Shown: piece by piece, positions 6,150 to 61,424 of the stretch
How positions within the stretch are numbered: position 1 is the first letter of the stretch
How the letters are laid out: each line of letters starts with the position of its first letter
Assembly (NCBI GenBank): GCA_963558895.1
Contig: CAUWIK010000004.1
Span: 32,966-96,965 of the forward strand
Reading direction: 5' to 3'
DNA: 64,000 nt
DNA from: an uncultured Chlamydiaceae bacterium
GTDB lineage: Bacteria > Chlamydiota > Chlamydiia > Chlamydiales > Chlamydiaceae
Program-made: the position numbers and the translations under genes
The notes under the pieces: generated by a model
What the model was told of the DNA's origin: nothing
Database searches by the model: none
Seen by the model: only the letters and a program-made list of their open reading frames with translations

Positions 6150-7517
6150 TTACTTTGTTTTAGATAGTGAAATTGGTTTCGCATTCCATGTTGGGAGAAA
6201 TAAAAGAATAGAAATAATTCCACAAATACTTAATGTGATAAAATAACCTTTCCACCCCCAATCTTGAGCAATTTTTCCTAAAGGATAACCTGCAGCAGCA
6301 GCGCCAAAATATGCAAACCATCCCGCAAAGCCACTAGCTGTTCCAGCAGCTTTTTTGTGAGCTAATTCAGCAGCAGCTAACCCTATTAACATTTGTGGTC
6401 CGAATAAGAAAAAGCCTATAAAGAAGAGGAGTGTTCCATCTACAAAGATACTAGTATTAGAATAAAGGGAAAAAATAATGATGGAAATTAACATTCCTAA
6501 AGAAAATAGTACGTTAGCAGGACCTCTCTTCCCTCCGGAAATCTTATCTGATAACCATCCTGCGGCTAGCATTCCAAAGAGACCTCCTAACTCGAAGATG
6601 GATACACATAAATTTGCTTTTAAAACAGTATATTGTTTTGTTTCTATTAGAAAAAGAGCACTCCAATCGTTAATTGCCATTCGAATAACATAAATAAAGA
6701 AAGAAGCTATAGCTAATAACCAAATCCATTTATTAGTTAAAACATGATCCCAAAGAATTTGTTTAGTAGATAATTCTTTTTCTTCTTCTTCTTGATTAGA
6801 ATTTTTTTGTATGTCGGTAGTTGGATAGTCGTTTTTAAACTTTTCTATTGGAGGTAATCCTAAAGATTGAGGAGTATCTCTTAACCTGTTTATTAAAATA
6901 ATCCCCATACCAATACATAAAATTCCTGGCAAATACATGGCTCCTCTCCACCCAAAGAATTGGATTGCATAGGCCATAATAATTGGAATTAGGAAACCTC
7001 CAATATTATGAGAAGTACTCCAAAAACTCCACCAAACTCCTCTTTCAGATTGTGAATACCAGTGTGTTAGCAGTCTTGCGCAAGGAGGCCATCCCCATCC
7101 TTGAAACCAACCATTTATTCCCCAGAATATTGCAAATAACCACAAAGATGAAGACATTCCAAAAAAGATGTTTGTTAAGCCTGTAATGATTAGTCCTAAA
7201 GACATAAAATATCTAGGATTAGATTGGTCGGACATGATTCCGCTAACAAATTTACTAATTCCATAAGTAATGTAGAGAATGCTTCCTAGAAAGCCCAATT
7301 CAGCTTTGTCAAAACCTAAATTGGACATTAGAGCAGGCATAGCAAAAGTAAAGCTTTTTCTAGTAAAATAATAAAAAATATAACCAATAAACATCGAATA
7401 AAAAATCCGAATACGCCAGTAGTTATATTTTTTTTTGATAATGATGGGATTAGTAATTTCTTTAATATGAGGAGCAGGTTTTAGAAAGTCAGGTAATATA
7501 TTCATCAATAAAACCAT
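6150..7517 (-). CDS. uhpC: MFS sugar-phosphate/phosphate antiporter (hexose-phosphate transporter UhpC-like)
   Basis: 455 aa with 12 predicted TM segments. Organophosphate:Pi antiporter signatures (YYFTRKSF, SDQSNPRYF, GWFQGWGWPPCARLLTHWY). Sits next to dnaE as in Chlamydia. Confidence 0.88.
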   Translation of the reverse strand: MVLLMNILPDFLKPAPHIKEITNPIIIKKKYNYWRIRIFYSMFIGYIFYYFTRKSFTFAMPALMSNLGFDKAELGFLGSILYITYGISKFVSGIMSDQSNPRYFMSLGLIITGLTNIFFGMSSSLWLFAIFWGINGWFQGWGWPPCARLLTHWYSQSERGVWWSFWSTSHNIGGFLIPIIMAYAIQFFGWRGAMYLPGILCIGMGIILINRLRDTPQSLGLPPIEKFKNDYPTTDIQKNSNQEEEEKELSTKQILWDHVLTNKWIWLLAIASFFIYVIRMAINDWSALFLIETKQYTVLKANLCVSIFELGGLFGMLAAGWLSDKISGGKRGPANVLFSLGMLISIIIFSLYSNTSIFVDGTLLFFIGFFLFGPQMLIGLAAAELAHKKAAGTASGFAGWFAYFGAAAAGYPLGKIAQDWGWKGYFITLSICGIISILLFLPTWNAKPISLSKTK

Positions 7518-7907
7518 TATGCAATTAAATGTTTTAAGTCATCGTAGCATATAGGGCTATAAAAATCATCAATCTTTCTAATCAAGATATTGTACAAGAA
7601 GGATATTTGTGATATAAATAGCTCCTTATGAGAATTATGTTTTTACTTATGTTTTTTTTGAAAAAAAGATTCATTGTTTACTTATTATTAACGATTGGTT
7701 TGTATAGTTTTTATAATATGTTTATAAAAATTAATTGTTATTTATCATATTTGAAATATATGGAAAAAGATGTACAAAAAAAGAATTTGGATCAGCAAAT
7801 AATAGAACCTTTATTTTTAGATCAATCTATTAAGCATTTAGTTTAATCTTCTTTTGCTCTTAATTTCTTATTTTTTTATTCTACGTTTTCTAAAAAAAAT
7901 GATTATT

Positions 7908-9197
7908 ATGAAAAGTTCTTTAGTTAAAGGTGTTTTTGATGTTTTCCCTTTTGCTTATAAAGGAGATAATCCTTGGCAAAGTGTAGAATATTGGGTTTAT
8001 TTGGAAAAAGTTATAAGAAAAATTTGTCAGTTAAATGGTTTTTTTGAGATTAGAACTCCTAACTTTGAGTATTCAAAATTGTTTAATTCTTTAGGGGAAT
8101 ACAGTGATGTAGTTTCAAAAGAAATGTATACTTTTTTGGATAAAAAAGGAAGATCATTAACTTTAAGACCAGAGGGAACAGCACCTGTTATACGAGCTTT
8201 TGTTCAACATAAGTTGTATGAAAAAAGCAAAAATTCTAAGTTATTTTATATACTTCCAATGTTTCGGTATGAGCGACAGCAAAATGGACGTTACCGACAA
8301 CATCATCAGTTTGGAGCAGAGGTGATAGGAGAAAAGAATCCTTATAAAGATGCAGAGCTAATTTTAATGCTTCATCAATTATATCGGTCTTTAAATATAG
8401 AACATGTTTATTTTGAGCTTAATTGCTTAGGAGATTTAGAAACTAGGGAAAATTATGTAAAAAAATTAAAACAATTTTTTCAATCACATTTTTCTGAATT
8501 GTCTTCCTTAAGTCAGGACAGGCTGTGTCATAATCCGTTGAGAATTCTTGATTCAAAAGAAAAAGAGGATAAGGAAATTATTAAAGAAGCGCCTTCAATT
8601 TTCCCTTTTCTAAAAGAAGAAGCATTGGAATATTTTGAAAAAGTTCTGAAAATATTAAAATCTAATAATGTTATTTGTTTTAAAAATGATCATTTAGTAA
8701 GAGGACTTGATTATTATACAGATCTTGTTTTTGAGGTAAATGTTAAAAAAAATTCTCAGACTTCTCTTGCTTTGGGAGGAGGAGGTAGATATGACGGTTT
8801 AGTTTCTCATTTGGGAGGACCTAAATTATCAGCTTGTGGTTTTGGAACTGGTTTGGAAAGAATTATTCAATGTATAATCCAACAGAATAAAGAACCCCAA
8901 ATTACTCATCCTATTTGTTTAAGGTTTCTTCCATTAGGAGTTACAGCTCAAGAGAAAAGTCTTATGTTAAAACAATCTTTAGTTCAAGAAAACATTCCTG
9001 TAGAAGTTGATTGGTCGGGTAAAGGATTGAAGTTTATGTTGAGTGAAGCTTCCAAAGATAATATTCCTTTTGTTTGTATTTTGGGAGATGAAGAATTGAA
9101 GACGGGTCAATTAACAATAAAAAATATGAGAGAACATGAAATAATAAAATGTTCGGAAGAAGAATTAAAAAAAAGGTTAGTTGTTTATGAAATATAG
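7908..9197 (+). CDS. hisS: histidine--tRNA ligase
   Basis: Class II aaRS motifs (LRPEGTAPV, FRYERQQNGRYRQHHQFGAE, GGGRYDGL). The ORF track start at 7854 adds a hydrophobic extension, so an internal ATG (7899 or 7908) is more likely. Confidence 0.94.
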   Translation: MKSSLVKGVFDVFPFAYKGDNPWQSVEYWVYLEKVIRKICQLNGFFEIRTPNFEYSKLFNSLGEYSDVVSKEMYTFLDKKGRSLTLRPEGTAPVIRAFVQHKLYEKSKNSKLFYILPMFRYERQQNGRYRQHHQFGAEVIGEKNPYKDAELILMLHQLYRSLNIEHVYFELNCLGDLETRENYVKKLKQFFQSHFSELSSLSQDRLCHNPLRILDSKEKEDKEIIKEAPSIFPFLKEEALEYFEKVLKILKSNNVICFKNDHLVRGLDYYTDLVFEVNVKKNSQTSLALGGGGRYDGLVSHLGGPKLSACGFGTGLERIIQCIIQQNKEPQITHPICLRFLPLGVTAQEKSLMLKQSLVQENIPVEVDWSGKGLKFMLSEASKDNIPFVCILGDEELKTGQLTIKNMREHEIIKCSEEELKKRLVVYEI

Positions 9198-41367: not shown

Positions 41368-43215
41368 TTATGTATCTACAAGAATTGGAGTATAATTGCG
41401 AAATAAGGCTAACTCTTTTTCAAAAGTTAGCATAACTGTTCCAATGGCTCCGTGTCTATTTTTCGCTACAATTAATTCGGCTAAACCTGGTTTATCATGA
41501 GGATCATAATATTCTCTTCGCAATAAGAACATGACTAAGTCAGAGTCTTGTTCAATGCTGTTGTGTACGATAATATTTTGTGCAATAAAATTGTGATTAT
41601 TAGCAACTGTAACATCGAATACTTTAGATTGACCTAAGGGAACAATAGATATAATTTTATCATAATAAATATTTGAAGATAGAGGATCTTTGACAAGAAT
41701 AGAATCACCGGATTTTAAATTGCTTAATTTTGTCCATATATTATCTCTATAAAAAGGATGATTTTCTGAAGCTTTTATGCAAAATCCACTTTCGGTATTT
41801 AATTTAAAAACCTGTTTTTCTCCGGAGTAAAAAGCTTTTGTTATAACGTCTTTTTCTAAAAGAAAAGAGTTTGTATTAAAAGATAAAATAGGCAAAGGTA
41901 AAAGACAGGGATTTTCTGTTAACTCTTTCATGGTTAATTTTTTCCCTTCTAGAGAAGTAATTATTGAATCCCCAGTTAAACACCCACTTTCTCTTAAGTC
42001 ACTCATCATAGGTCGGTGATTAGCTCGGTCTTCAACTTTTCTAGAAAGTTGAGATAAGCACAGGATAGGGATATTTAATTCTCTTGCTAAAGTCTTTAAA
42101 TCTCTAGAAATTTCGGAAATCTCATTTTGCCTACTTTCTTGAGATCGAAAAGAACCAGATCCAGAAAGTAATTGTAAATAATCAATGATTAAAAATTTAA
42201 TACCATGACTTTCTTTCATTCTTCTTGCTCTTGCTTTTAAATCTGATATTTTTATTCCAGGCTGATCATCTATAAACATTTTGTGTTTTTTCATTTCTTC
42301 AACAGCAGAAACAATTTTTTGGAAATCGTGACCAGTTAAATTTCCCAGCTGAATTTTTTGAGATTCTACCTCAGATTGAGAGCAGACTATTCTATGCAAC
42401 AACTGTTCAGCACTCATTTCTAAAGAAAAAATTCCAACAGGAACGTCATGTTTAAAACAAATATTTTCGGCGATATTAAGAGCTAATGCTGTTTTTCCCA
42501 TAGCTGGCCTCGCAGCCAAGATCATTAGATTAGAAGGCATAAAACCATTTAATAGTCGATCTACGTCTATGAAATATGTGGGTAATGCTAATAAATTAAT
42601 ATGGTTATTTTGGCCAGGAGAAGATCTAAAAGCCTCTTGTTTTTCTTGAATTTCTGTAAGAAAAGGTTTTTGAGAAGTTGTTGATATTCCTTCTAACATG
42701 TGAGAAAGAAGAACCCCTTCTCCTGAATGAGATGATTGGCTAATTTGAAAAAATAGGTTTTGAGCTTCATTTAAAACTTCTCGAAAATCAGAAGGTTCTT
42801 CTATAGCTTTTTTTTCAATAAATTGAGCTGTTTTAATCATTTTTCTTAAAATAGCTTTACTTTTTACTATTTCAGAATATTCCTCAATATAAGCGGATGT
42901 TCCTGCGAACTGAGCTAGGGTTGTTAGATAGTTAATTCCTCCAATGACTTCTAATTTATTTTGTCTTTTTAATTCTTCTGCAGTTAAGCGTACATCTATA
43001 GGACGATCTTGTTTATAAGCTAATTTTAAAACCTGAAAAATAATTTTATGTTCTAGAAAATAAAAATCTTCTTCATTTAATTTATCTGCAACTGAATTGA
43101 TGGCATTAATATTAGTTAACATGGAACCTATTACCATCATTTCAGAATCTCTTGAATGAGGAGGCAATTTGAGTGCTGAATCAGACATTTTAGATTTTTT
43201 TGTAGTTTTAACCAT
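41368..43215 (-). CDS. dnaB: replicative DNA helicase DnaB, interrupted in frame by a mini-intein
   Basis: 615 aa. N-terminal domain, Walker A (ARPAMGKTALALN), IIDYLQLL and SQLSRKVEDRANHRPMMSDLRESG. A 141-aa insert follows, then SIEQDSDLVMFLLRREYY. The two exteins sum to 474 aa. Confidence 0.96.
   Translation of the reverse strand: MVKTTKKSKMSDSALKLPPHSRDSEMMVIGSMLTNINAINSVADKLNEEDFYFLEHKIIFQVLKLAYKQDRPIDVRLTAEELKRQNKLEVIGGINYLTTLAQFAGTSAYIEEYSEIVKSKAILRKMIKTAQFIEKKAIEEPSDFREVLNEAQNLFFQISQSSHSGEGVLLSHMLEGISTTSQKPFLTEIQEKQEAFRSSPGQNNHINLLALPTYFIDVDRLLNGFMPSNLMILAARPAMGKTALALNIAENICFKHDVPVGIFSLEMSAEQLLHRIVCSQSEVESQKIQLGNLTGHDFQKIVSAVEEMKKHKMFIDDQPGIKISDLKARARRMKESHGIKFLIIDYLQLLSGSGSFRSQESRQNEISEISRDLKTLARELNIPILCLSQLSRKVEDRANHRPMMSDLRESGCLTGDSIITSLEGKKLTMKELTENPCLLPLPILSFNTNSFLLEKDVITKAFYSGEKQVFKLNTESGFCIKASENHPFYRDNIWTKLSNLKSGDSILVKDPLSSNIYYDKIISIVPLGQSKVFDVTVANNHNFIAQNIIVHNSIEQDSDLVMFLLRREYYDPHDKPGLAELIVAKNRHGAIGTVMLTFEKELALFRNYTPILVDT
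41560..41982 (-). mobile_element. mini-intein (141 aa, no homing-endonuclease domain) inside dnaB
   Basis: DnaB residues 412-552. Block A CLTGDSIIT (Cys1 codon TGT at 41982-41980, checked on the nucleotides), block B SENH, block F VFDVTVANNHNFIA, block G NIIVHN followed by the +1 Ser (AGC at 41559-41557). Same site as the Synechocystis DnaB intein (ESG/CISGDSLI ... DIIVHN/SIEQDAD, from memory). Confidence 0.9.
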
Positions 43216-44297: not shown

Positions 44298-45941
44298 GTG
44301 AGCGCAACATCTAAAAACAAATTGTTTTCTAAATGGCGAGCACTAATTTGGCCTATATATCACTATGACTTAAGTAAGTTTTTGCCTCTGTTCTTTTTGG
44401 CTTTTTTTATAGGATTTAATTATACCGTACTTAAAAATATGAAGGATGCTTTATTAGTATCCACAGCTGGAGCCGGGGCAGAAGTAATTCCTTTTATTAA
44501 AGTTTGGGGTATTGTTCCTGGAGCAGTATTAATGACTGCTTTTTATGGCTTTTTAAGTAATAAACACAATAAACGAACTGTTTTTTTTATTCTTGTTGGA
44601 TTTTTTAGCATATTTTTTATTCTTTTTTCTTGTGTAATGTACCCTTGTCAAGAGTATTTGAGATTAGATGCTTTATCGGATCGTTTAAGTTTGATTTTGC
44701 CTCAAGGATTTAAGGGTTTAGTGGCAATGATTCGCTATTGGAGCTTTAGTTTATTTTATGTTATGTCTGAATTATGGGGCTCTGTTGTTTTATCAACTTT
44801 ATTTTGGAGTTTAGCTAATGAAATAACTTCTGTTTCAGAAGCTAGTCGTTATTATGCTTTAATAAATACGGCTATTAATTTGGCAGGTTTGTTTGCTGGA
44901 TTATTTTCTGTATGGATAAGTACTCCAATATTTTTACGTTTTGTAGTAGATGAATGGCATAATATCATTATCCTTCTTACTATTTTTATATCAATCTCTA
45001 GTATTTTTGTTTTATTTCTTTATAATTTTTCTTATCAGAAACAGAATAAAAAATTAATTAAAGAAGAAACTTTTGTTAAAGATTCTTTGATTTCTTTAAA
45101 AGTTAATCAGAAGAAAGAAGAAAGAGAACGTGTAAAACTTCCAAAGTTGTTTTCGTATATTTCTCATTCTAGGTATCTTTTGTATATAGCAGCTCTTGTT
45201 TTATCATATAACTTAACAATTCATTTGTTTGAGGTTGTTTGGAAAGATCAGGTAAGTAATTTATACCCAAGTCCTATTGATTTTAATATGTATATGGGAA
45301 GAGTTTCATCTTTTACTGGTATTGTTTCTACGTTAACTTCCTTGTTAATTTCTGGCCATTTGATAAGAAAGTTTGGTTGGACATTGAGTGCTTTTCTTAC
45401 TCCTTTAATTATGTTTGTAACCGGAAGTGTTTTTTTTATAACTATTTTCCTTTTTCAAAAAAATAGTTCTATGCTTTCTTTTTTAGGAATGCATTCTCCT
45501 TTATCTTGTATTGTTTTTTTGGGTTCTGTACAAAATATTTTATCGCGTACTTCAAAGTTTACTTTTTTTGATATAACAAAAGAAATGGCTTTTATTCCTT
45601 TATCTCCCGAAGCTAAGAGAAGAGCAAAAGCAGTAATAGATGGTGTTGTTTCTAGAGTAGGAAAATCTGGGGGCTCTTTTCTTTATCAATTTTTGTTAAT
45701 TTTATTTTCTACAATTTCGGCAAGCATTAATGTTGTTAGCTTTCTACTTATTTTTATATTTATATCTTGGAGTTTGTCTATATTTGGTTTATCAAAAAAG
45801 TTTTCTCAATTGACTATTGATGAAAATCAATCTGCAGATGTTGTAAATTTTAATGATAAGAATGTAATTTTATCTACTTATAATACTATTGAGGATCTTA
45901 CTCCTTCTTCTCTAAAGGAGATAACCCCAGTTATTAAATAA
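44298..45941 (+). CDS. npt2: TLC-family nucleotide transporter (ATP/ADP translocase / NTP importer), Npt2 by genomic position
   Basis: 547 aa with a GTG start and about 12 TM segments. The N-terminus (WRALIWPIYHYDLSKFLPLFFLAFFIGFNYTVLKNMKDALLV) matches the chlamydial/rickettsial Npt/Tlc pattern. Assigning Npt2 rather than Npt1 rests on synteny only. Confidence 0.85.
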   Translation: MSATSKNKLFSKWRALIWPIYHYDLSKFLPLFFLAFFIGFNYTVLKNMKDALLVSTAGAGAEVIPFIKVWGIVPGAVLMTAFYGFLSNKHNKRTVFFILVGFFSIFFILFSCVMYPCQEYLRLDALSDRLSLILPQGFKGLVAMIRYWSFSLFYVMSELWGSVVLSTLFWSLANEITSVSEASRYYALINTAINLAGLFAGLFSVWISTPIFLRFVVDEWHNIIILLTIFISISSIFVLFLYNFSYQKQNKKLIKEETFVKDSLISLKVNQKKEERERVKLPKLFSYISHSRYLLYIAALVLSYNLTIHLFEVVWKDQVSNLYPSPIDFNMYMGRVSSFTGIVSTLTSLLISGHLIRKFGWTLSAFLTPLIMFVTGSVFFITIFLFQKNSSMLSFLGMHSPLSCIVFLGSVQNILSRTSKFTFFDITKEMAFIPLSPEAKRRAKAVIDGVVSRVGKSGGSFLYQFLLILFSTISASINVVSFLLIFIFISWSLSIFGLSKKFSQLTIDENQSADVVNFNDKNVILSTYNTIEDLTPSSLKEITPVIK

Positions 45942-51728: not shown

Positions 51729-51784
51729 TTCTTTCCAAATGAAGAGAATTAAAAGTATATTATTAATAATTTGATTAATGGGAG

Positions 51785-51815
51785 CCATCTATCTTGAGAT
51801 AGATGGTTTTTTTTT
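51785..51815 (+). terminator. strong intrinsic terminator abutting the carA start (rho terminator and/or pyr attenuator)
   Basis: Perfect 9-bp stem CCATCTATC (51785-51793) / GATAGATGG (51798-51806), loop TTGA, then nine T (51807-51815). GTG ATG of carA follows immediately. Confidence 0.8.
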
Positions 51816-52868
51816 GTGATGTTGAAGGAATGTTTATTTTTAGAATCAGGAGAGATATTTTTAGGAAAACAAGAGACTTCTTTTTCTGGAGAAGGAGAAG
51901 TTGTGTTTACAACAGGGATGTGTGGTTACGTAGAGAGTTTAACAGATCCTTCTTTTTCGAAGCAGATTTTAGTTTTTACCTATCCTATTTTAGGCAATCA
52001 TGGAGTTCATGATAAACATACTTGGGAAGGATTGAAAATTTCTGTGGCAGGAGTTGTGGTTAGTTATTTGAGTAATCAATGGAGCCATGCCCAAGGAATA
52101 ATGTCTTTAAGAGAATGGTGTGAAATTGAAAAAATCCCTTTGATTTCTTCTATAGATACAAGAAGGTTAACAAAAGTTATTAGGAATAAAGGAAGTTTAT
52201 GGGGATATATTGGAGAGAAAAAAGCAACAAAAAATAATTTTAAAAAAGAAGTTAATTTAGTTGCTTCTGTAACGCCAAAGGAAAAATCTTTACATAATTG
52301 GAGCAAAAATCATCGTCATCAGGTTATTGTTGTTGATTGTGGAATGAAAAATAACATTTTGAAAGAGCTTTCAAAATTTCCTATTAATATTGTTAGAGTC
52401 CCCTATGATTATGATTATTCAAAAGAATATTTTGATGGCATATTTATCTCGAACGGACCAGGAGATCCTTCAATATGTTCTGAGACAGTTAGTATTCTTA
52501 AAAACGTTATGTCTTGTGGAAAGCCTATATTTGGAATATGTTTGGGATTACAACTGATGGCTTTAGCTATTGGGGCAAAAGTTTATAAGTTGCCTTTTGG
52601 GCATAGAGGTCAAAATCAACCTTGTTTTTGCATAGAGGATAAAAGATGTTATTTGACTAGTCAGAATCATGGTTTTGCAGTTGATGCGAATTCCTTACCA
52701 AAAGATTGGCAGGTATGGTTTGTTAACTTAAATGATAATTCTGTGGAAGGAATAAAGCATAGTTTTTTACCATTTTTTTCTGTTCAGTTTCATCCAGAAG
52801 CTGCTCCTGGTCCTACCGATACAATGTGGTTATTTAAAAGGTTTTATCAATGTATATTGGATCAATAA
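51816..52868 (+). CDS. carA: carbamoyl-phosphate synthase small (glutaminase) subunit
   Basis: 350 aa. VVFTTGMCGYVESLTDPSF, GATase triad context GICLGLQLMA and FSVQFHPEA. The start is GTG 51816 or ATG 51819. Confidence 0.95.
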   Translation: MMLKECLFLESGEIFLGKQETSFSGEGEVVFTTGMCGYVESLTDPSFSKQILVFTYPILGNHGVHDKHTWEGLKISVAGVVVSYLSNQWSHAQGIMSLREWCEIEKIPLISSIDTRRLTKVIRNKGSLWGYIGEKKATKNNFKKEVNLVASVTPKEKSLHNWSKNHRHQVIVVDCGMKNNILKELSKFPINIVRVPYDYDYSKEYFDGIFISNGPGDPSICSETVSILKNVMSCGKPIFGICLGLQLMALAIGAKVYKLPFGHRGQNQPCFCIEDKRCYLTSQNHGFAVDANSLPKDWQVWFVNLNDNSVEGIKHSFLPFFSVQFHPEAAPGPTDTMWLFKRFYQCILDQ

Positions 52869-55800
52869 AAAAAGTCTTACTACTAGGTTCTGGAGGGTTA
52901 AGAATAGGCCAAGCAGGAGAATTTGATTATTCTGGATCTCAAGCTATAAAAGCTCTTAAAGAAGAAAATATAGAAATAGTTCTTTTAAATCCTAATATTG
53001 CTACAGTGCAAACTGATCCTGGAATGGCTGATAAAGTATATTTAATGCCTTCATCTTTAGAAGAAACTAAAAAAATTATTATTAAAGAAAAACCAGATGC
53101 TATTTTATTAGGCTTTGGTGGGCAAACTGCATTAAATTTGGGTTTGGAACTTTATGATTGTGGTTTTTTAGAAGAAAATAACATTGTTGTTCTGGGAACT
53201 TCGATTCAATCAATTAAAATAACAGAAGATAGAGAGTCGTTTAAACAATCTTTGCATTCTATAGGTGTTGCTACTCCTAAAAGCAAACAAGTTTCTTCTT
53301 TGGAAGAAGCTGTGAAAGAGGCTCATCAATTAGGTTTTCCTGTAATGATGCGTTTAGGTTTTTCTTTAGGTGGATTAGGATCTGGAAAAATTGTTGATGA
53401 AAGAGATTTAATAGAAAAAGCATCTGTAGCTTTGAGTTATTCTCCTACATTACTTATAGAAGAGTATTTGGAAGGTTGGAAGGAAATAGAATATGAAATA
53501 ATTAGAGATGTTTTTGGAAATACTTTAACTGTATGTAATATGGAAAATTTTGATCCTCTTGGAATTCATACAGGGGAGAGTATTGTCGTTTGCCCTTCGC
53601 AAACATTGACTAATTATGAATATCATATGTTAAGAGAAGTAGCTATTAAGGTAGCTAACCATTTAGAAATTTTAGGAGAGTGTAATATTCAATATGCTCT
53701 TAACCCTCTAACTTCTGAATATCGAGTCATTGAAGTAAATGCAAGGCTCTCTAGATCTAGTGCGTTAGCTTCAAAAGCAACAGGATATCCTTTGGCTTTT
53801 GTAGGAACAAAATTAATGCTTGGTTATCCTCTTAATGAAATTAAAAATGCTATTACTCAGATAACTACTTCTTTTTTTGAACCAGCTTTAGATTATATTG
53901 TTGTAAAGATGCCTCGTTGGGATACTCATAAGCTAAAGTTGGCTAATCGTACTATTGGTTCTGAAATGAAAAGTGTAGGAGAAGTTATGGGAATTGGAAG
54001 AACCTTTAACGAGGCTCTACACAAAGCTTTGAGAATGTGTAATTTGGGTTGTGAAGGATTATTAGATCATATTCCTTTTTCTGAGAGTATTTTAGAAGCT
54101 GAAATTGCAACTCCTACAGATAAAAGGCTTTTTGCTATTGCTCAGTTTATAGCTTGCGGTGGTTCTATAGATAGAATACATATTTTATCTGGTATAGATA
54201 AATGGTTTTTATATCAGATTAAAGAAGCTGTAGATTTTTCTTTGGTCATCCAAAATCGAGATAAAGAACTGAGTAGGGAAGAGCTTATGTTGGCAAAAAG
54301 ATTAGGTTTTTCAGATAAGTATATAGCTAATTTAGTAAAAGTTGATGTGGAGGAAATTAGAGAAAAAAGGATAAGTTATGGAATAGTTCCTGTTGTCAAA
54401 CAAATAGATACGTTGGCTGGTGCTTATGATGCTTTTACAAATTATTTATATATGACATATTGCGGAGATGAGAATGACATTTCTCCTTCTCCAACCAGAC
54501 CAATTGTTGTTTTAGGTTCTGGCCCTTATGCTATTGGATCTTCGGTTGAGTTTGATTGGTGCGCAGTTAATACTATTCGTTGCCTTCGTAAAAATAATGA
54601 ATATTCAATTATCATTAATTCTAATCCAGAAACAGTTTCTACTGATTATGACGAATCAGATAGATTGTATTTTGAAGAAATTTCTTTAGAGAGAGTTAGA
54701 GATATTGTTGATTATGAGCAGTCTAAAGGTATTATAGTTTCTGTTGGTGGACAGATAGCTAATAATCTAGCTTTGCCTTTGGATTCTTTAGGATATTCTA
54801 TTTTAGGAACTTCTCCAAAAAATATTGATATGGCAGAAGATAGACAAAAGTTTTCTTTGTTATTGAATCATTTAAATATTGATCAACCAGAATGGATTGA
54901 AGCAACAAATCATCAAGATGCTTTATCTTTTGCTAAGAGGATTAATTTTCCAGTATTAGTTAGGCCTTCTTATGTTCTTTCTGGTGCTGCTATGAGCATT
55001 ATTTATAATGAAGAAATGTTAGTAGATTTTCTTGATAAAGCTTTATTAGCTGCAGCAGGACATTCAGTGGTAATTTCCAAATTTATTTTGGAAGGTAAAG
55101 AATTTGAAATGGATGGAGTTGCTCAAAATGGTAATATTATTATTAAAGCATATTCTGAACATATAGAACATGCAGGAGTGCATTCTGGAGATGCTACTAT
55201 TGTTTTGCCTCCGCAAAGACTTTTTTTAGAAACTATTCGACAATCAAACATTATTGCTAAAAAAATTGTCGCAGCTTTAAATATTTCTGGGCCTTTTAAT
55301 ATTCAATTTATAGCAAAAAGGGGTCAAGTTAAAGTTATAGAGTGCAACTTAAGAGCTTCTCGTTCTTTACCTTTTGTTTCTAAGGTAACAGGATATAATT
55401 TTATTTCTTTTGTAGTAGATGTTCTTTTAAATAAGACAATTAAAAAGCAAGATTATAATACTTTAGATTTAGATTACGTTGGTGTAAAGGCTCCTTTATT
55501 TTCTTATAATAGGCTAAAAGGTTCTAATCCAGTAGCTTGTGTAGAAATGGCGTCTACAGGAGAAGTTGCTCATTTAGGAGAAAATTTATATAAAGCTTTT
55601 TGGGGGGCTTGGAGATCTACTGAACAACAAATAAAAGGTAAAAAAATTTTGTTGAGTTTAGGAGGGAGTACGAAAGAACGTTTAATTCATGAGGTAAAGA
55701 TATTAGATAAATTAGGTTGGGAATTTTATTCTACAACAGGAACTCATGATTACCTTTCTTATAATGGAATAGCTTCTCGTTGTTTATTTAAAGCAAGTGA

Positions 55801-56056
55801 TTGTATTAGTCCAGATATTAGAGAAGTAATTAAGAATCAAGAAGTTGATTTAATTATTAATATACCTCGCTCTACGGAATTAAAACCAAATACAGATGGG
55901 TTTTTTATTAGACGTTTAGCTATTGACCATCGAGTTCCTTTAATTACAGACCTTCAGGTTGCCCGAGTATTTTTAAATTGTTTAATCCAAATTGAAGATC
56001 TTTTTCCAGATGTTAAATCTTGGGCAGATTATGTGAGGAAAGGTTATGAAGGATAA
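52850..56056 (+). CDS. carB: carbamoyl-phosphate synthase large subunit
   Basis: 1068 aa. Duplicated ATP-grasp halves (GSGGLRIGQAGEFDYSGSQA and GSGPYAIGSSVEFDWC) and a C-terminal MGS-like allosteric domain. Confidence 0.97.
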   Translation: MYIGSIKKVLLLGSGGLRIGQAGEFDYSGSQAIKALKEENIEIVLLNPNIATVQTDPGMADKVYLMPSSLEETKKIIIKEKPDAILLGFGGQTALNLGLELYDCGFLEENNIVVLGTSIQSIKITEDRESFKQSLHSIGVATPKSKQVSSLEEAVKEAHQLGFPVMMRLGFSLGGLGSGKIVDERDLIEKASVALSYSPTLLIEEYLEGWKEIEYEIIRDVFGNTLTVCNMENFDPLGIHTGESIVVCPSQTLTNYEYHMLREVAIKVANHLEILGECNIQYALNPLTSEYRVIEVNARLSRSSALASKATGYPLAFVGTKLMLGYPLNEIKNAITQITTSFFEPALDYIVVKMPRWDTHKLKLANRTIGSEMKSVGEVMGIGRTFNEALHKALRMCNLGCEGLLDHIPFSESILEAEIATPTDKRLFAIAQFIACGGSIDRIHILSGIDKWFLYQIKEAVDFSLVIQNRDKELSREELMLAKRLGFSDKYIANLVKVDVEEIREKRISYGIVPVVKQIDTLAGAYDAFTNYLYMTYCGDENDISPSPTRPIVVLGSGPYAIGSSVEFDWCAVNTIRCLRKNNEYSIIINSNPETVSTDYDESDRLYFEEISLERVRDIVDYEQSKGIIVSVGGQIANNLALPLDSLGYSILGTSPKNIDMAEDRQKFSLLLNHLNIDQPEWIEATNHQDALSFAKRINFPVLVRPSYVLSGAAMSIIYNEEMLVDFLDKALLAAAGHSVVISKFILEGKEFEMDGVAQNGNIIIKAYSEHIEHAGVHSGDATIVLPPQRLFLETIRQSNIIAKKIVAALNISGPFNIQFIAKRGQVKVIECNLRASRSLPFVSKVTGYNFISFVVDVLLNKTIKKQDYNTLDLDYVGVKAPLFSYNRLKGSNPVACVEMASTGEVAHLGENLYKAFWGAWRSTEQQIKGKKILLSLGGSTKERLIHEVKILDKLGWEFYSTTGTHDYLSYNGIASRCLFKASDCISPDIREVIKNQEVDLIINIPRSTELKPNTDGFFIRRLAIDHRVPLITDLQVARVFLNCLIQIEDLFPDVKSWADYVRKGYEG

Positions 56057-56957
56057 AAATTTATTAACAATAGAGTCATTGAATAAAGAAGAAATATTAG
56101 AAATATTAGATGCAGCTACCCTTATGAAACAAGGGAATTATGATAAGAATTTATTAGAAAATAATATTTTAGCTTCTTGTTTTTTTGAACCGTCAACAAG
56201 AACACGTTTTTCTTTTGAATCAGCTATGTATCGACTGGGTGGCAAAGTAATTAGCCTCAATGGAGAAGAAGCAAGTTCTATGAAAAAAGGGGAGACATTG
56301 TTTGATACAATAAAAGTATTAGGTAGTTATGCTGATATTATTGTATTAAGGCATCCTTTAGAAGGTGTTGCGAAAAGAGCTGCAGAAGCTGTTGATAAAC
56401 CTATAATTAATGCTGGAGATGGAGCTCACGAGCATCCTTCCCAAGCACTTATAGATTTATTTTCTATTAGAGAAAGTCAAGGTAGTTTGGAAAATTTGAA
56501 TATTGCTGTTATTGGAGATTTATTACATGGACGTGCTGTTCATTCTTTGGTTTTAGCGTTTTTAAATTTTTGTAATCGTTTATTTTTTATCTCTCCGGAA
56601 GAATTTTCTTTGCCTAAATCGTTATCAAATAAATTGAGAGCTAAAGGGATTCCTTTTTCATTTAATAAAAATCTTGATGATATTATAGATAATTTGGATG
56701 TTCTTTATGTTACAAGAATTCAAAAAGAACGTTTCTATGATAAATATGATTATTTAGGTGTAAAAAATTCTTATAGAATATCTTTAGAACAATTGAGAGG
56801 TTGTAAGTCAAATTTAAAAGTATTTCATCCTCTTCCAAAAGTTGATGAGATTGATGTTAATATAGACAACTCTCCTTATGCTTACTACTTTATTCAGGCA
56901 ACCAATGGATTGTATGTTAGACAAGCATTATTAGCAAAATTGTTGAGGAAATTATGA
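56046..56957 (+). CDS. pyrB: aspartate carbamoyltransferase catalytic chain
   Basis: 303 aa. FFEPSTRTRFSFESA, HPSQALIDL and HPLPKVDEI. Confidence 0.96.
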   Translation: MKDKNLLTIESLNKEEILEILDAATLMKQGNYDKNLLENNILASCFFEPSTRTRFSFESAMYRLGGKVISLNGEEASSMKKGETLFDTIKVLGSYADIIVLRHPLEGVAKRAAEAVDKPIINAGDGAHEHPSQALIDLFSIRESQGSLENLNIAVIGDLLHGRAVHSLVLAFLNFCNRLFFISPEEFSLPKSLSNKLRAKGIPFSFNKNLDDIIDNLDVLYVTRIQKERFYDKYDYLGVKNSYRISLEQLRGCKSNLKVFHPLPKVDEIDVNIDNSPYAYYFIQATNGLYVRQALLAKLLRKL

Positions 56958-57400
56958 AAGAAAAATTATTGGATGTAGCTGCTATTCGTAATGGAACGGT
57001 TATAGATCATATTCCTCCAGGAAATGCTTTGAAAATTATTTCTTTGTGTTCTCTTGAAGTTAATCAATCTAGAACTTTTATTGGACTTAATTTAAAAAGT
57101 ACAAAGATGAAGGTAAAAGATTTATTGAAGATAGAAAATTTAGAAATCTCTCAAGATTTATTAGATGTAATAGTTATTTTGGGGGGACATTCTTTAACTG
57201 TAAATCTAATCAAGAATTTTGAAATTGTTAATAAGTTTAAACCTAGAATCCCTAAAATGATTTCGGTTAAATTTTGTTGTAATAATGAAAGATGTATATC
57301 TCATTATGAAAAAACTCCTGGTAAATTTAATGTTATTTCTAAAAGCAATGTTATAGATTTAATATGTTTTTATTGTGATGAACCTTATATAGTAAAATGA
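56954..57400 (+). CDS. pyrI: aspartate carbamoyltransferase regulatory chain
   Basis: 148 aa. AIRNGTVIDHIP, LKIEN and the Zn domain CCNNERCISH ... CFYCDE. Aligns along its whole length with my recollection of E. coli PyrI. ATGA overlap with pyrB. Confidence 0.92.
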   Translation: MKEKLLDVAAIRNGTVIDHIPPGNALKIISLCSLEVNQSRTFIGLNLKSTKMKVKDLLKIENLEISQDLLDVIVILGGHSLTVNLIKNFEIVNKFKPRIPKMISVKFCCNNERCISHYEKTPGKFNVISKSNVIDLICFYCDEPYIVK

Positions 57401-58656
57401 AGACAATAAAAATCAAAAATCTTTTATCAATAGATAACTATCGTTTTGATATTACTTGCCAAAATATTTTTAAAAATTTTGTTTGTGAAGATATAGATGG
57501 GTCTTCTTTAGTAGCTTTTCCTGCTGTTATTGATCCTCATGTGCATTTTCGTACTCCTGGACATGAACATAAAGAGTCATGGAAGTTTGCTGCTTTCCCA
57601 GCAATATTGGGAGGAGTAACTACGGTTTTTGATATGCCTAATAATTCTCCTTTTATTTCTTCTATATCTCAATTAAGTATGAAACATTCTTTAATAGAAA
57701 ATCAGTTAAAAGAAGCAGATATTCCATTAAGATATAAATTATTTTTAGGAGCTACAGCTTGTAATTTTCATGATATTGAGATGATAAATTATTATAAGCA
57801 GATATGTTGTGGAATAAAGGTATTTTTAGGAAATTCAACGGGAGCAAGTTTTTTATCTTACAGTATTTTAGATAGAATTTTTAGAATTGCTGCAGAATTA
57901 AACTTAGTTGTAGCTGTGCATGCAGAAGATGAAGAAATTATACGAAAGAAACAAAGTTGTATGGGAGCTAAAGATTGGACTCAGATTAATGCTCATTCTT
58001 TATCTAGGCCGAGAGAAGCTGCAATAAAAGCTGTAGATCATGTTATAGAATTATCTCATAAACATGGTACGAAAGTTCATATACTACATGTTTCAACAGA
58101 AGAAGAATTAAAATTAATTAAAGAAGGAAAGAAAACAAATAAAACAATTTTTGCAGAAGCAGCTTTGCCTCATTTGTTTTTTGATGAAGAAGATTATATT
58201 TCATTAGGAAATTGTATAAAAGTTAATCCTCCAGTAAGAAATAAGTTAGATAGGGAAGCATTATGGGAGGCTATTAATTCTGGCTTAATAGATACGGTAG
58301 GATCTGATCATGCTCCACATTTAATTTATGAAAAACAAGTTTCTATAGAAAAAGCTCCTTCTGGAATCCCTGGAAACCCTTTTTTATTTCCTTTGATTTT
58401 AAATGCTGTTAATGAAGGATTGTTAATTAAAGAAAGGGTAACCAAGATAACACATGATGTTATTGTAGATTTATATGATTTAGAAGAAACTCAAGATTTT
58501 GTTTTAGTAGATATGAAAAAAGAACATAAAATAGAGGAAAGGGATATTAAGTCTTTATGTAAGTGGTCTCCTTTTTTAGGTAAATCTATTAAAGGATGGC
58601 CTATGTATGTAATTTTAAAAGGTACTCTTTATCCAGGATTAGGAGTATATTTATGA
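57397..58656 (+). CDS. pyrC: dihydroorotase (long, type I form)
   Basis: 419 aa. Amidohydrolase metal ligands DPHVHFRTPG, VHAED, HILHVST and GSDHAPH. ATGA overlap with pyrI. Confidence 0.92.
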   Translation: MKTIKIKNLLSIDNYRFDITCQNIFKNFVCEDIDGSSLVAFPAVIDPHVHFRTPGHEHKESWKFAAFPAILGGVTTVFDMPNNSPFISSISQLSMKHSLIENQLKEADIPLRYKLFLGATACNFHDIEMINYYKQICCGIKVFLGNSTGASFLSYSILDRIFRIAAELNLVVAVHAEDEEIIRKKQSCMGAKDWTQINAHSLSRPREAAIKAVDHVIELSHKHGTKVHILHVSTEEELKLIKEGKKTNKTIFAEAALPHLFFDEEDYISLGNCIKVNPPVRNKLDREALWEAINSGLIDTVGSDHAPHLIYEKQVSIEKAPSGIPGNPFLFPLILNAVNEGLLIKERVTKITHDVIVDLYDLEETQDFVLVDMKKEHKIEERDIKSLCKWSPFLGKSIKGWPMYVILKGTLYPGLGVYL

Positions 58657-58925
58657 AAATTTCCAATAATAGATTTGGGAAAAATAACAAAAGATAAGTT
58701 AGACCATAAAGAGTTTGGTTTATTAAAGAAAAGTTCTAAATAGTTAATTAAAATTTGTTTTTGTTTTTGAAGATAATCAATAGCTATCATGTTAGAGGGG
58801 ATAAAAAATCCTAAATATTTTTGGTTATGGTGTTCTTCAATGGATAAGATATTAGATGAATTTGAAAAATACAGTTGTTCAAGTTTTTGAGTTAAATTAA
58901 TTCCAATAAAAATTTGTGTTTCCAT
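58629..58925 (-). CDS. orphan 98-aa ORF, antisense-oriented, filling the pyrC-pyrD gap (possibly not expressed)
   Basis: It spans almost exactly the 280-nt gap, whereas the + strand there is full of stops. No ribosome binding site is seen upstream of its ATG, no family is recognised, and any promoter would lie inside pyrD. Confidence 0.25.
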   Translation of the reverse strand: METQIFIGINLTQKLEQLYFSNSSNILSIEEHHNQKYLGFFIPSNMIAIDYLQKQKQILINYLELFFNKPNSLWSNLSFVIFPKSIIGNFHKYTPNPG

Positions 58926-58936
58926 AAGGTAGAAAT

Positions 58937-60046
58937 ATGATAAATGATGATTATTTACAAGATGATTCCTTAAATTTTTGGCTTAAAAATCCTCCTATTT
59001 ATGATATCTCTAAATCATATGAGGAAAATTTATTGCAAGGACCTTTTCTTAGAGAAAATTTTTTATCTAAAAGGATTTTTCCTTCTGAAGATTTATGGAT
59101 AGATTTTTTAGGTCATAAAATAGCTTCTCCTATAGGTATTCCTGCAGGACCTTTGTTGGATGCAGACTGGGTAATAGCAGCATCGCGCTTAGGATTTGAT
59201 GTTCTTACTTATAAGACAATTCGTAGCCGTTTTACTCCAGCTCACAAGCTTCCTAATATGTTGTTTGTAGATAAAGATTCTTTAGTAGCTTTACCTAAAG
59301 GTAAACGACCAAAAAATATTTTAGATTTAGCAGTAACAAATTCTTTTGGAGTTCCTTCTCAAGATATTGAATTTATAAAAAAAGATATAAAAAAAGCCTT
59401 AGAAGGTATTAAAAAAGGTCAATTGTTGATTGTATCAGTTATGGGAACTTCTCCTAGTAATGCTCATGAACCTTCTTTAGAAGAAGATTTTGCTCAGACT
59501 GCTTTATTAGCTGTTGAAGCAGGAGCTCCCATTATAGAGTTAAATTTTTCATGCCCTAATTTAAGTTGCTCTTTAGGGGAAACTTATACGGATGCTAACT
59601 TTATTGCTAAGGTAATTTCTAATGTAAAATCTTATATTAAAGATGTTCCTATAATAGCTAAGTTAGGTAAATTTGATAATGATGCTACTTTGAGAAAAGT
59701 AGTTTGTGCTGTTGCTGAAGCTGGAGGAGCAGGCATTTGTGGGCTTAATACATTAAAAATAGAACTTAAAGATGAAAATGGGGAACCAGCTTTAGGAAAA
59801 GAACGATTAAAAGCTGGTATATGTGGTGTTCCTTTAAGACAAGAAGCTTTGGAATTTGGGAAAAAAGTAACTCTAATTAAACAACAAGAAAATTTGGATT
59901 TAAAATTGCTACTTACAGGAGGAGCAGTAATTCCAGAGCATTTACATGATTTTTTAAATGTTTCTGCAGATATAGCAATGACTGCAGCTGGTATGATGTG
60001 GAATCCTTTTTTAGCTTTACAATTTCATGGGAGTGTTCATGTGTAA
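58937..60046 (+). CDS. pyrD: dihydroorotate dehydrogenase, divergent class-1-like (Cys catalytic base)
   Basis: 369 aa. ASPIGIPAGP, ELNFSCPN (Cys where class 2 enzymes have Ser) and LLLTGGAV. About 50-aa N-terminal extension. No pyrK next to it. Confidence 0.75.
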   Translation: MINDDYLQDDSLNFWLKNPPIYDISKSYEENLLQGPFLRENFLSKRIFPSEDLWIDFLGHKIASPIGIPAGPLLDADWVIAASRLGFDVLTYKTIRSRFTPAHKLPNMLFVDKDSLVALPKGKRPKNILDLAVTNSFGVPSQDIEFIKKDIKKALEGIKKGQLLIVSVMGTSPSNAHEPSLEEDFAQTALLAVEAGAPIIELNFSCPNLSCSLGETYTDANFIAKVISNVKSYIKDVPIIAKLGKFDNDATLRKVVCAVAEAGGAGICGLNTLKIELKDENGEPALGKERLKAGICGVPLRQEALEFGKKVTLIKQQENLDLKLLLTGGAVIPEHLHDFLNVSADIAMTAAGMMWNPFLALQFHGSVHV

Positions 60047-60644
60047 CCAATCTTTAAGAAAAGTTATTCTAGAACTATTCGACATAGGTGTTTTTCAATT
60101 TGGTAATTTTACTTTAAAAACAGGAATTAATTCTCCCATATATATAGATTTAAGAAGAATTATTTCTAAGCCAAAGTTGTTAGTTATTATATCTAAATTA
60201 ATGTGGAAAGATTTTCTAGATTCAATAGATGTTATTTGTGGAGTTCCATATACGGCTCTACCTATAGCTACAGTACTTTCTATTGAATATCAAATTCCAT
60301 TAGTTTTAAAGAGAAAAGAAGAGAAGAACTATGGATTAAAGAAGAAGATAGAAGGAATTTTTCATGAAGGAAATAGGTGTGTAATAATAGAGGATGTTAT
60401 TACATCTGGATCTAGCATTTTAGAAACTAAAAAAGATTTGGAAAAAGAAGGTCTTTTAGTGAAAGAAGCTTTGGTTTTTCTGAACAGGGGTCAGGGAGGA
60501 GAAAATAATTTATTAAGTAAAGGAATAAAGGTTTATTCTGTTTGTTCGTTATTTGAGGTTTTAGACATTCTTCTTTATTCTATGAAAATTGATCAGGTTT
60601 GTTATGAAAGAGTTATAAATTTTTTAAATACTCATCGGGTATAA
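60039..60644 (+). CDS. pyrE: orotate phosphoribosyltransferase, UMP-synthase (eukaryote)-like type
   Basis: ATG at 60039 overlaps the pyrD end. [43 protein letters not shown] and the PRPP loop [17 protein letters not shown]. Near-collinear with my recollection of the N-terminal domain of human UMPS. Confidence 0.92.
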   Translation: [201 protein letters not shown]

Positions 60645-60647
60645 AAT

Positions 60648-61424
60648 ATGAAAAATAAAAGTTATTCTGATAGAGCAAAATTAACAAAACATTCTTTAGG
60701 AAAAGATTTACTAGAGTTATTAGACAAAAAACAAACAAATTTGGGGGTAGCTCTTGATGTTACATCTTGTAAAGAATTTTTAAAAATAGCTAATGAGATA
60801 GGTCCTCATATATGTATTCTTAAAACTCATATAGATATATTAGAAGATTTTACTATAGATTTTATTCAGCAATTAATGGATTTGTCTATAAAGCATAATT
60901 TTCTAATTTTTGAAGATAGAAAATTTGCTGATATTGGTAATACAGTACAACTACAATATAAAAAAGGCATTTATAGAATTTCTGATTGGGCTCATATAAT
61001 TAATGCTCATATTTTACCAGGATCTGGTATTATTGAAAGTTTAAGGACAGTTGGTCTTCCTCTTAATAGAGGATTATTATTACTTGCAGAGATGAGTTCA
61101 AAGGATAACTTGTTTTCTGCTTCATATACTTCAACAGCTGTTAGGTGGGCAGAACTGTATGAAGATTTTGTTATTGGTTTTATTTCTCGAAGAAAATTAT
61201 CTTTTAATGAATCTTTTATTTATTTTACTCCTGGGGTAAGTTTAAATAGGCAAAGTGATGCAATAGATCAAAATTATTTTACTCCAGAACAAGTGATAGG
61301 ATCCTTAGGAAGCGATATTATATTAGTAGGAAGAGATATTTATAAAGCAGAGTTTCCTGGTAAACAAGCTGAACTTTATAGACAAGAAGGATGGGATGCA
61401 TATAAAACTCGTTTGAGTGTTTAA
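60648..61424 (+). CDS. pyrF: orotidine-5'-phosphate decarboxylase, URA3/UMPS (eukaryote)-like type
   Basis: 258 aa. KQTNLGVALDV, ICILKTHIDIL, FLIFEDRKFADIGNTV, LLLLAEMSS, GSDIILVGR and the GWDAYKTRL C-terminus all parallel yeast URA3 / human UMPS as I recall them. Confidence 0.93.
   Translation: MKNKSYSDRAKLTKHSLGKDLLELLDKKQTNLGVALDVTSCKEFLKIANEIGPHICILKTHIDILEDFTIDFIQQLMDLSIKHNFLIFEDRKFADIGNTVQLQYKKGIYRISDWAHIINAHILPGSGIIESLRTVGLPLNRGLLLLAEMSSKDNLFSASYTSTAVRWAELYEDFVIGFISRRKLSFNESFIYFTPGVSLNRQSDAIDQNYFTPEQVIGSLGSDIILVGRDIYKAEFPGKQAELYRQEGWDAYKTRLSV

Follow-up and report, generated by a model that had tools for sequence, protein, structure and literature searches.

UMP synthase-type pyrE and pyrF genes at the end of a complete pyrimidine operon in an uncultured Chlamydiaceae bacterium

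Introduction

Human uridine monophosphate (UMP) synthase, UMPS, joins an orotate phosphoribosyltransferase (OPRT; PDB 2wns) and an orotidine-5'-phosphate decarboxylase (ODC or ODCase; PDB 3bk0/2qcc) in one polypeptide with a short linker. We describe here two adjacent genes, pyrE and pyrF, that share with this enzyme the subfamily, the catalytic motifs and the OPRT-then-ODC order, but stand as two cistrons parted by a stop codon in a bacterial operon. They lie in a stretch of 64,000 nucleotides deposited under an uncultured Chlamydiaceae bacterium (assembly GCA_963558895.1, contig CAUWIK010000004.1, positions 32,966 to 96,965), hereafter the window, whose numbering is used throughout. The subfamily is known and already curated, and the pair is an unexceptional addition to it.

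Several other described enzymes come close to one or both proteins. Yeast URA3 (PDB 1dqw/3gdk) is, like the PyrF of the window, a stand-alone ODCase of the same subfamily that keeps the equivalents of D37, K59, D91, K93 and D96; it differs by fungal insertions that the window protein does not have. The yeast OPRT (URA5, PDB 2pry) belongs to another, E. coli-like type and scores 36 bits against the window PyrE. In the cyanobacterial and kinetoplastid ODC-OPRT fusion (NF004034, PRK05500; Leishmania UMPS, PDB 3qw4), the OPRT part is the next-closest type to the window PyrE, with 146 bits for the model and 110 bits for 3qw4, but the domain order is reversed and the ODC part is of another type, with no match to the window PyrF. 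This reversed fusion is ascribed to independent fusion events in a passage of PMC2705460 that cites Makiuchi et al. 2007. Curated bacterial models in NCBIfam, NF010382 (PRK13809) for PyrE and TIGR01740 for PyrF, already cover the subfamily of the window pair, and the chlamydial and Patescibacteria PyrE that we tested pass NF010382 with 220-232 bits against a cut-off of 208.

Among chlamydiae, the pyrE genes of C. pneumoniae, C. felis, C. caviae, C. abortus and C. psittaci are annotated 'UMP synthase' (PMC3091639, PMC3323650). Chlamydiaceae genomes with such an orphan pyrE have neither pyrF nor any of the upstream steps (PMC3091639), and in this they differ from the window, which carries the whole pathway. 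Waddlia chondrophila and Criblamydia sequanensis combine nucleotide import with the synthesis of UMP from glutamine by a complete de novo pathway (PMC2878342, PMC4333871). They resemble the window, where a TLC transporter gene accompanies the de novo genes, although the organism of the window appears to belong to a different lineage, judged by Rho identities. In the literature searched we found no published phylogeny placing chlamydial PyrE and PyrF relative to UMPS.

The pyrE–pyrF pair and its resemblance to UMP synthase

The two genes and their junction are the following.

pyrE, 60039..60644, + strand: UMPS-type orotate phosphoribosyltransferase, 201 amino acids (aa), with an 8-nt overlap with pyrD
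pyrF, 60648..61424, + strand: UMPS/URA3-type orotidine-5'-phosphate decarboxylase, 258 aa
pyrE/pyrF junction, 60642..60650, + strand: TAA stop, AAT and the pyrF ATG, read from the sequence

An in-frame ATG at 60027 offers an alternative start for pyrE that would add 4 residues. Both genes are in one reading frame, and a single stop codon and a single Asn codon lie between them. The order of the genes matches the N-terminal OPRT and C-terminal ODC of the bifunctional UMP synthase; the pair is not a single polypeptide, since the TAA stop at 60642-60644 parts pyrE from pyrF. A first, sequence-only reading of this locus had reported these open reading frames, their 3-nt spacing and the OPRT-then-ODC order, all of which were borne out, and each peptide block that it quoted was found in the window where it had been placed.

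The residues expected of working enzymes are in place. As in type I phosphoribosyltransferases, PyrE has a phosphoribosyl pyrophosphate-binding motif (aa 116-126, aligned with human LIIEDVVTSGSS), and its flexible loop, KRKEEKNYG, occupies aa 91-99. In PyrF, the active-site segments ALDV, LKTH and EDRKFADIGNT hold the equivalents of yeast D37, K59 and D91-K93-D96, all aligned, the yeast numbering having been checked against the verified URA3 sequence. The phosphate gripper segments DQNY (aa 207-210) and VGRD (aa 227-230) align with human GQQY and VGRG. PyrE passes the general model TIGR00336 (132.6 bits, cut-off 106.8) and PyrF passes TIGR01740 (181.2 bits, cut-off 92.3).

Both proteins were searched against all PDB sequences, and percent identities were taken from trimmed alignments. 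PyrF matched the ODC domain of human UMPS with 282.8 bits (E 2e-83, 50.6% identity) and yeast URA3 with 221 bits, against at most 39 bits for PyrF of the E. coli, Vibrio and Bacillus type; its identity to E. coli-type enzymes was 23-28%. PyrE matched the human OPRT domain with 195 bits (E 1e-56, 47.6% identity) and Leishmania UMPS with the 110 bits given above, against at most 58 bits for ordinary bacterial PyrE, and was 22-32% identical to ordinary prokaryotic types. The E. coli PyrF and yeast URA3 sequences were matched at 100% to PDB 1eix and 3gdk before use.

By sequence, then, both proteins belong to the UMPS/URA3-type subfamily and not to the E. coli/Bacillus type 1. The first reading had placed them close to UMPS and URA3 and far from the E. 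coli and Bacillus types, and the scores (283 and 221 against at most 39 bits for PyrF, 195 against at most 58 for PyrE) agree with it: both proteins are much closer in identity to UMPS than to the usual bacterial enzymes. The human motifs that it cited, including FLIFEDRKFADIGNTV, are right, as seen in the PDB alignments to 2wns and 3bk0, and the motif of the LDLKFHDIPNT type that it attributed to E. coli PyrF was confirmed in the E. coli sequence.

Given the intact motifs, the curated cut-offs passed, the 48-50% full-length identity to the human domains and the presence of all upstream pathway genes, PyrE and PyrF are predicted to be a functional OPRT and ODCase that would convert orotate to orotidine-5'-phosphate and on to UMP as two separate polypeptides. 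They would be translated from one operon messenger RNA, with no readthrough fusion expected.

Distribution of the stand-alone genes in bacteria

Homologues of the window PyrF are numerous, with 4489 clusters at 90% identity and E<=1e-20. Of the best 120 of these clusters, nearly all hold unfused proteins with a length near 255 aa and 54-61% identity to the window protein, and the named ones come from Chlamydiales, Patescibacteria (Doudnabacteria and others) and metagenome-assembled genomes (MAGs) of Gammaproteobacteria, with one fungus, Saitoella, at 56%. A scan of species-representative genomes with a single protein as query found UMPS-type pyrF at just 8 loci, in Komeilibacteria, Magasanikbacteria, Gammaproteobacteria and Chlamydiales MAGs. 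Named matches of PyrE include Rhabdochlamydiaceae, Chlamydiae and Patescibacteria. For both proteins the best overall matches are bacterial and stand-alone, at 55-61% identity.

The two genes do not always travel together, as shown by bacteria in which UMPS-type pyrF occurs with an ordinary pyrE or with none. One gammaproteobacterial MAG has a UMPS-type pyrE about 70 nt upstream of pyrF. Another gammaproteobacterium and a Magasanikbacterium have an ordinary-type pyrE upstream of the UMPS-type pyrF (L003, L009), and in one other Chlamydiales MAG no pyrE was found within 3 kb of the UMPS-type pyrF.

Closer to the window, the same operon is found in relatives whose PyrF is 79-85% identical. L020, a distant chlamydia-like contig with a PyrF about 57% identical, has the order pyrB-I-C-D-E-F followed by the type III secretion genes sctJ/L/R/S/T. 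The same pyrB-to-pyrF order at this distance indicates that the pair is old within Chlamydiota. The junction itself varies: in the relative L010 the spacer is 4 nt (TAAAATAATG) and the frames of pyrE and pyrF differ, and in L020 the two genes overlap by 4 nt. Junctions of +3, +4 and -4 nt among relatives bespeak operon packing and not a fission scar, and the same-frame junction, once considered as such a scar, was rejected because it is conserved in neither L010 nor L020. The 3-nt spacer also fits the rest of the operon, in which neighbouring cistrons overlap or abut. It is ordinary operon compaction, consistent with translational coupling. In base composition and in overlapping-cistron layout, pyrE and pyrF are like the remaining operon.

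Phylogenetic position of the pair

A neighbour-joining (NJ) tree of 292 ODC domains gathered the stand-alone bacterial sequences in one clan with a backbone bootstrap near zero, and was dropped as a basis for deep claims for that reason. For genomes in which both genes are known, the concatenated OPRT and ODC alignment (451 columns) gave a window clade with 100% bootstrap in NJ, joined by the L020 pair at 75% and by another split pair at 41%; deeper than this last node the tree is a star.

Quartets gave a similar picture. The grouping of the window with a chlamydial pair, against two eukaryotes, was recovered in 0.87 of bootstrap draws, and in 0.76 with the second split pair. The gammaproteobacterial pair reached 0.57, and fused bacterial proteins 0.21-0.43, near the chance value of 0.33. 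Among eukaryotes tried with the window, Spinacia stood at chance level (0.34) and Echinamoeba showed a weak attraction (0.50); no other exceeded 0.33. Nesting of the window proteins in a eukaryotic clade was not found by the distance methods used, NJ and quartets.

Insertions in the alignment agree with this, in that those of plants, fungi and amoebozoans are absent from the window and from the other bacteria. Saitoella carries the fungal insertions, so that its closeness to the bacteria reflects slow evolution and not shared history. The window proteins lie inside the bacterial group, but the eukaryotes are not distant from that group.

Rooting was attempted for both domains. With the PyrF of E. 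coli, PDB 3ldv and PDB 3tr2, all 23-28% identical to the window, the ODC root had no support. With Leishmania, PDB 2yzk and two ordinary bacterial PyrE, the OPRT tree had the chlamydial sequences basal and the eukaryotes inside, without bootstrap support. Neither root being supported, outgroup rooting was discarded. Hidden Markov model profiles of stand-alone and fused proteins were also compared, and the window scored higher on the stand-alone profile; human and spinach did too, and profile classification was dropped as a weak and sampling-biased discriminator.

Fused OPRT-ODC genes in bacteria and giant viruses

A query that concatenated PyrE and PyrF returned, from a database of 1.84 billion representative proteins, 883 representatives (50% identity clusters) at E<=1e-30. 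Among the best 150 of these, OPRT precedes ODC in 139 fusions and the order is reversed in 2. The eukaryotic fusions among the matches come from Spinacia, ticks, Apis, Trichoplax, Henneguya and Echinamoeba, and the top fused match to the joined pair is the plant UMPS of Spinacia (51% identity, 453 bits). The link between plants and chlamydiae that this match might suggest was rejected, the quartet being at chance and the plant insertion absent.

Other fusions stand in bacterial surroundings. One of 452 aa (L016/L017, 6001-7359) belongs to an 89-member cluster, found on contigs that reach 488 kb, and lies near a Por_Secre_tail gene (type IX secretion sorting), DPP-IV and superoxide dismutase; this cluster, in which one member bears the name Cloacibacterium, looks like Bacteroidota. 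A fusion of 488 aa (L018, 6001-7467) is on a 1.09-Mb contig and shares a 13-kb neighbourhood with rnpA, rpmH and the trigger factor. Another of 459 aa (L015, 5001-6380) sits beside peptide deformylase and gcpE. A C962R-type primase, DUF4246 and a dihydroorotate dehydrogenase (DHODH) accompany a fusion of 434 aa (L013/L014, 5001-6305) on a contig that looks like a giant virus. An alignment-based scan of IMG/VR further found 9 giant-virus contigs (L021-L029), 4 of them named GVMAG, that encode a UMPS-type ODC at 36-47% identity; the viral scan with the virus-like fusion P0260 as sole query had given no match.

These fused proteins (the P0447/P0259 cluster, P0254 and P0250, together with P0260 and the GVMAG loci) have the same domains, subfamily and order as the window pair. 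They differ in being single polypeptides of 434-488 aa, with ODC domains just 42-48% identical to that of the window, and in quartets only the virus-like P0260 among them groups with the window. The window proteins are colinear with the fusions. Named eukaryotic fusions, other than that of Henneguya, add about 4-12 linker residues; linker length was rejected as a marker of eukaryotic against bacterial fusions, as it does not discriminate.

Predicted fused UMP synthases are thus common in bacteria and giant viruses. The rule by which a fused OPRT-ODC had been labelled eukaryotic among the 150 representatives was dropped, since fusions occur in bacterial and giant-virus-like contigs. Neither a UMPS-like sequence nor a fused one implies a eukaryotic source.

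The operon and its organism

Upstream of pyrE, the window carries the other genes of the pathway, with one antisense reading frame among them.

carA, 51816..52868, + strand: carbamoyl-phosphate synthase small chain, first gene of the operon; Pfam CPSase_sm_chain and GATase
carB, 52850..56056, + strand: carbamoyl-phosphate synthase large chain, 19-nt overlap with carA; Pfam CPSase_L_D1/D2/D3 and MGS
pyrB, 56046..56957, + strand: aspartate carbamoyltransferase (ATCase) catalytic chain, 11-nt overlap with carB; Pfam OTCace_N and OTCace
pyrI, 56954..57400, + strand: ATCase regulatory chain, 4-nt ATGA overlap with pyrB; PF01948 PyrI precomputed for the identical gene in L001
pyrC, 57397..58656, + strand: dihydroorotase, 4-nt ATGA overlap with pyrI; NCBIfam dihydroorotase models up to 303 bits
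98-aa open reading frame of unknown function, 58629..58925, - strand: antisense, filling the 280-nt gap between pyrC and pyrD
pyrD, 58937..60046, + strand: divergent class-1-like DHODH, after the 280-nt gap that follows pyrC

A terminator-like hairpin with a T-run lies at 51780-51811, between rho and carA, and glgC starts 101 nt past pyrF. A promoter scan was uninformative, with fewer sites than in shuffled sequence. PyrI scores 129 bits against TIGR00240, under the cut-off of 148.55.

The 98-aa antisense frame has no Pfam match and is absent from the more distant L020, where no gap separates pyrC from pyrD. It is likely to be a genuine gene, specific to this lineage, that was inserted into the operon. 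A version 60% identical (82% similar) is present in the relative L010.

PyrD is markedly divergent, with just 40 bits for PF01180, a best PDB match of 27 bits and every NCBIfam DHODH model far under its cut-off. It retains the class-1 NFSCPN motif with its Cys, and has homologues in L010, L018 and L020. The one in L018, on the unrelated 1.09-Mb bacterial contig, is 38% identical and lies directly downstream of the fused OPRT-ODC gene (7475-8602). This DHODH variant may travel with UMPS-type genes.

The window has a GC content of 30%, that of an AT-rich chlamydia. Its Rho is 84-87% identical to the Rho of Chlamydia, Clavichlamydia and Chlamydiifrater, and 78% to a complete Rho of Parachlamydia. 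The closest named Rho (P0462, 87%) is labelled as a 'Victivallaceae bacterium' MAG, all remaining close matches being chlamydial; P0462 is probably a mislabelled chlamydial bin. Three further genes are of interest for the identity of the organism.

TLC-type nucleoside triphosphate/diphosphate (NTP/NDP) exchange transporter, 44298-45941, + strand: TIGR00769, 516 bits
UhpC-like hexose-phosphate transporter, 6150-7517, - strand
DnaB replicative helicase, 41368-43215, - strand: 614 aa, above the cut-off of NF004967/PRK06321

The Rho identity, UhpC, the TLC nucleotide transporter and a DnaB above the NF004967 (PRK06321) cut-off support a chlamydial origin of the window. Since the window holds the TLC and UhpC-like transporters and also every gene for making UMP de novo, the organism can apparently import nucleotides as well as make pyrimidines. 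DnaB also carries a mini-intein (Pfam Intein_splicing at aa 422-551, 58 bits) that interrupts the DnaB_C domain.

Discussion

The reading that we favour, and hold to be likely, is that the window carries working pyrE and pyrF genes of a UMPS-type subfamily widespread in bacteria, which were inherited within Chlamydiota and not captured recently from a host. The pair closes the compact carA-carB-pyrB-pyrI-pyrC-pyrD-pyrE-pyrF operon for the de novo synthesis of UMP. The subfamily to which the two proteins belong takes in the eukaryotic UMP synthase, the fungal URA3, separate and fused bacterial genes and those of giant viruses. Within Chlamydiota the pair appears to have descended vertically, as suggested by the same operon in close relatives, the gene order of L020 and the grouping of the window with split chlamydial pairs. 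Of the interpretation that had accompanied the sequence-only reading, the subfamily shared with eukaryotic UMPS and URA3 holds. A transfer from a eukaryote to a chlamydia followed by splitting in this lineage is not supported, given a subfamily widespread in bacteria as separate and fused genes, a pair old in Chlamydiota, a variable junction, the bacteria in which UMPS-type pyrF has an ordinary pyrE or none beside it, and the absence of any eukaryotic grouping and of the plant, fungal and amoebozoan insertions.

A number of observations weigh against our reading. The window PyrE scores 203.1 bits with the subfamily model NF010382, just short of the cut-off of 208. Eukaryotic sequences are nearly as close to the window PyrF as other bacterial ones, with 56% identity for Saitoella, 54% for Spinacia and 50% for human against 55-60% for the other bacteria, and the best deep split among named ODC sequences opposes bacteria to eukaryotes with 21-30% NJ bootstrap. 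Bacterial taxonomy is scrambled in the UMPS-type PyrF group, where for instance Komeilibacteria join a gammaproteobacterium with 58-61% bootstrap (L002-L009); this implies frequent horizontal transfer, and descent in Chlamydiota may not have been strictly vertical. Taken with the combination of UMPS-type pyrF and ordinary-type pyrE, the scrambling points to a frequent transfer of pyrF alone among bacteria. As to the material, most metagenomic homologues carry no taxon name, the bacterial sample consists of the best matches to the window and is biased to slowly evolving sequences, and the comparison set is without the pyr genes of the sister phyla in the Planctomycetota–Verrucomicrobiota–Chlamydiota group. 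The trees were built in Python from Kimura or gamma-corrected distances by NJ with column bootstrap, that is, with distance methods only and no maximum likelihood. The deep backbone of these trees is star-like and allows either direction for any ancient exchange between bacteria and the eukaryotic stem.

Among the other explanations, the one that survives best, though we would give it well under an even chance, is a bacterial origin of the eukaryotic enzyme. Adjacent pyrE and pyrF would be the unfused precursor, acquired as a pair by the eukaryotic stem and fused there by the loss of a stop codon, or already fused in the bacterium. Several chlamydial lineages do have the two genes at -4 to +4 nt, and a gammaproteobacterium has them at about 70 nt; in the window one stop codon is the sole barrier to a fusion protein, and fusions of the same order exist in bacteria. 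The same-frame arrangement is, however, not conserved, and the genes are scattered among bacteria in a pattern that horizontal transfer has shaped. The outgroup-rooted OPRT tree with bacterial sequences at its base would favour this origin, but that root has no bootstrap support, and ODC outgroups that are 23-28% identical make rooting unreliable. Likewise, the stand-alone bacterial profile scores the human and spinach domains above the fused profile, as would fit a near-ancestral consensus, but this may reflect slow evolution and biased sampling.

An ancient transfer in the opposite direction seems to us unlikely. A fused UMPS would have entered an early intracellular bacterium, chlamydial or a similar symbiont, become two separate cistrons and later passed by horizontal transfer to other host-associated bacteria (Patescibacteria, some Gammaproteobacteria, Bacteroidota) and to giant viruses. 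The named bacterial carriers are indeed patchy and include the host-dependent Chlamydiota and Patescibacteria, the gene is also found on giant-virus contigs, and animals, fungi, plants and Amoebozoa all have members with this ODC type. The gene order is the domain order, the bacterial proteins are colinear with the fusion, and the unrooted tree permits a single split between bacteria and eukaryotes with the direction free. Against this, no bacterial group is nested in a eukaryotic lineage, and the window shares no eukaryote-lineage insertions. The occurrence of UMPS-type pyrF with an ordinary pyrE or none in several bacteria is a poor fit to the single split of one fusion, and the OPRT tree with outgroups, although unsupported, has chlamydiae basal and eukaryotes inside. 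The bacterial diversity is also large, with the 883 clusters of the joined search and several deep fused branches on bacterial contigs.

A more specific proposal, slightly less probable still, is that the chlamydial pyrE-pyrF pair represents the surviving unfused form of the eukaryotic UMP synthase precursor. The eukaryotic stem or an early lineage would have taken the genes from a chlamydia-like or other intracellular bacterium, and the fusion would have come about when one stop codon was lost, a step illustrated by the TAA-AAT-ATG of the window junction, which is in frame.

Finally, the literal form of the first reading, in which this chlamydial lineage would have taken the pair from its current eukaryotic host and then split it, is highly improbable: for all the similarity to eukaryotic UMPS and the best fused match in Spinacia, the best matches overall are bacterial stand-alone proteins at 55-61% identity, the same operon is found in the distant chlamydia-like contig L020, base composition and overlapping layout match the operon, and the Spinacia quartet of 0.34 is at chance with the plant insertion absent.

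The inheritance of a bacterial pair within Chlamydiota, which we prefer to these alternatives, has consequences of unequal weight. Annotation is little affected: pyrE and pyrF are unremarkable here, and NCBI has bacterial models for their subfamily. For the origin of UMPS the useful result is a negative one, in that 'UMPS-like' and 'fused' are not markers of eukaryotic origin. Bacteria and giant viruses commonly carry both forms, so that how the fusion arose calls for a fresh study with this wider sampling.

For chlamydial biology, a lineage whose Rho is closest to those of Chlamydia and Clavichlamydia retains a complete de novo UMP pathway together with a nucleotide transporter. The full pathway found here suggests where the orphan pyrE of Chlamydiaceae came from: by putative orthology, this gene may be the remnant of an operon like that of the window.

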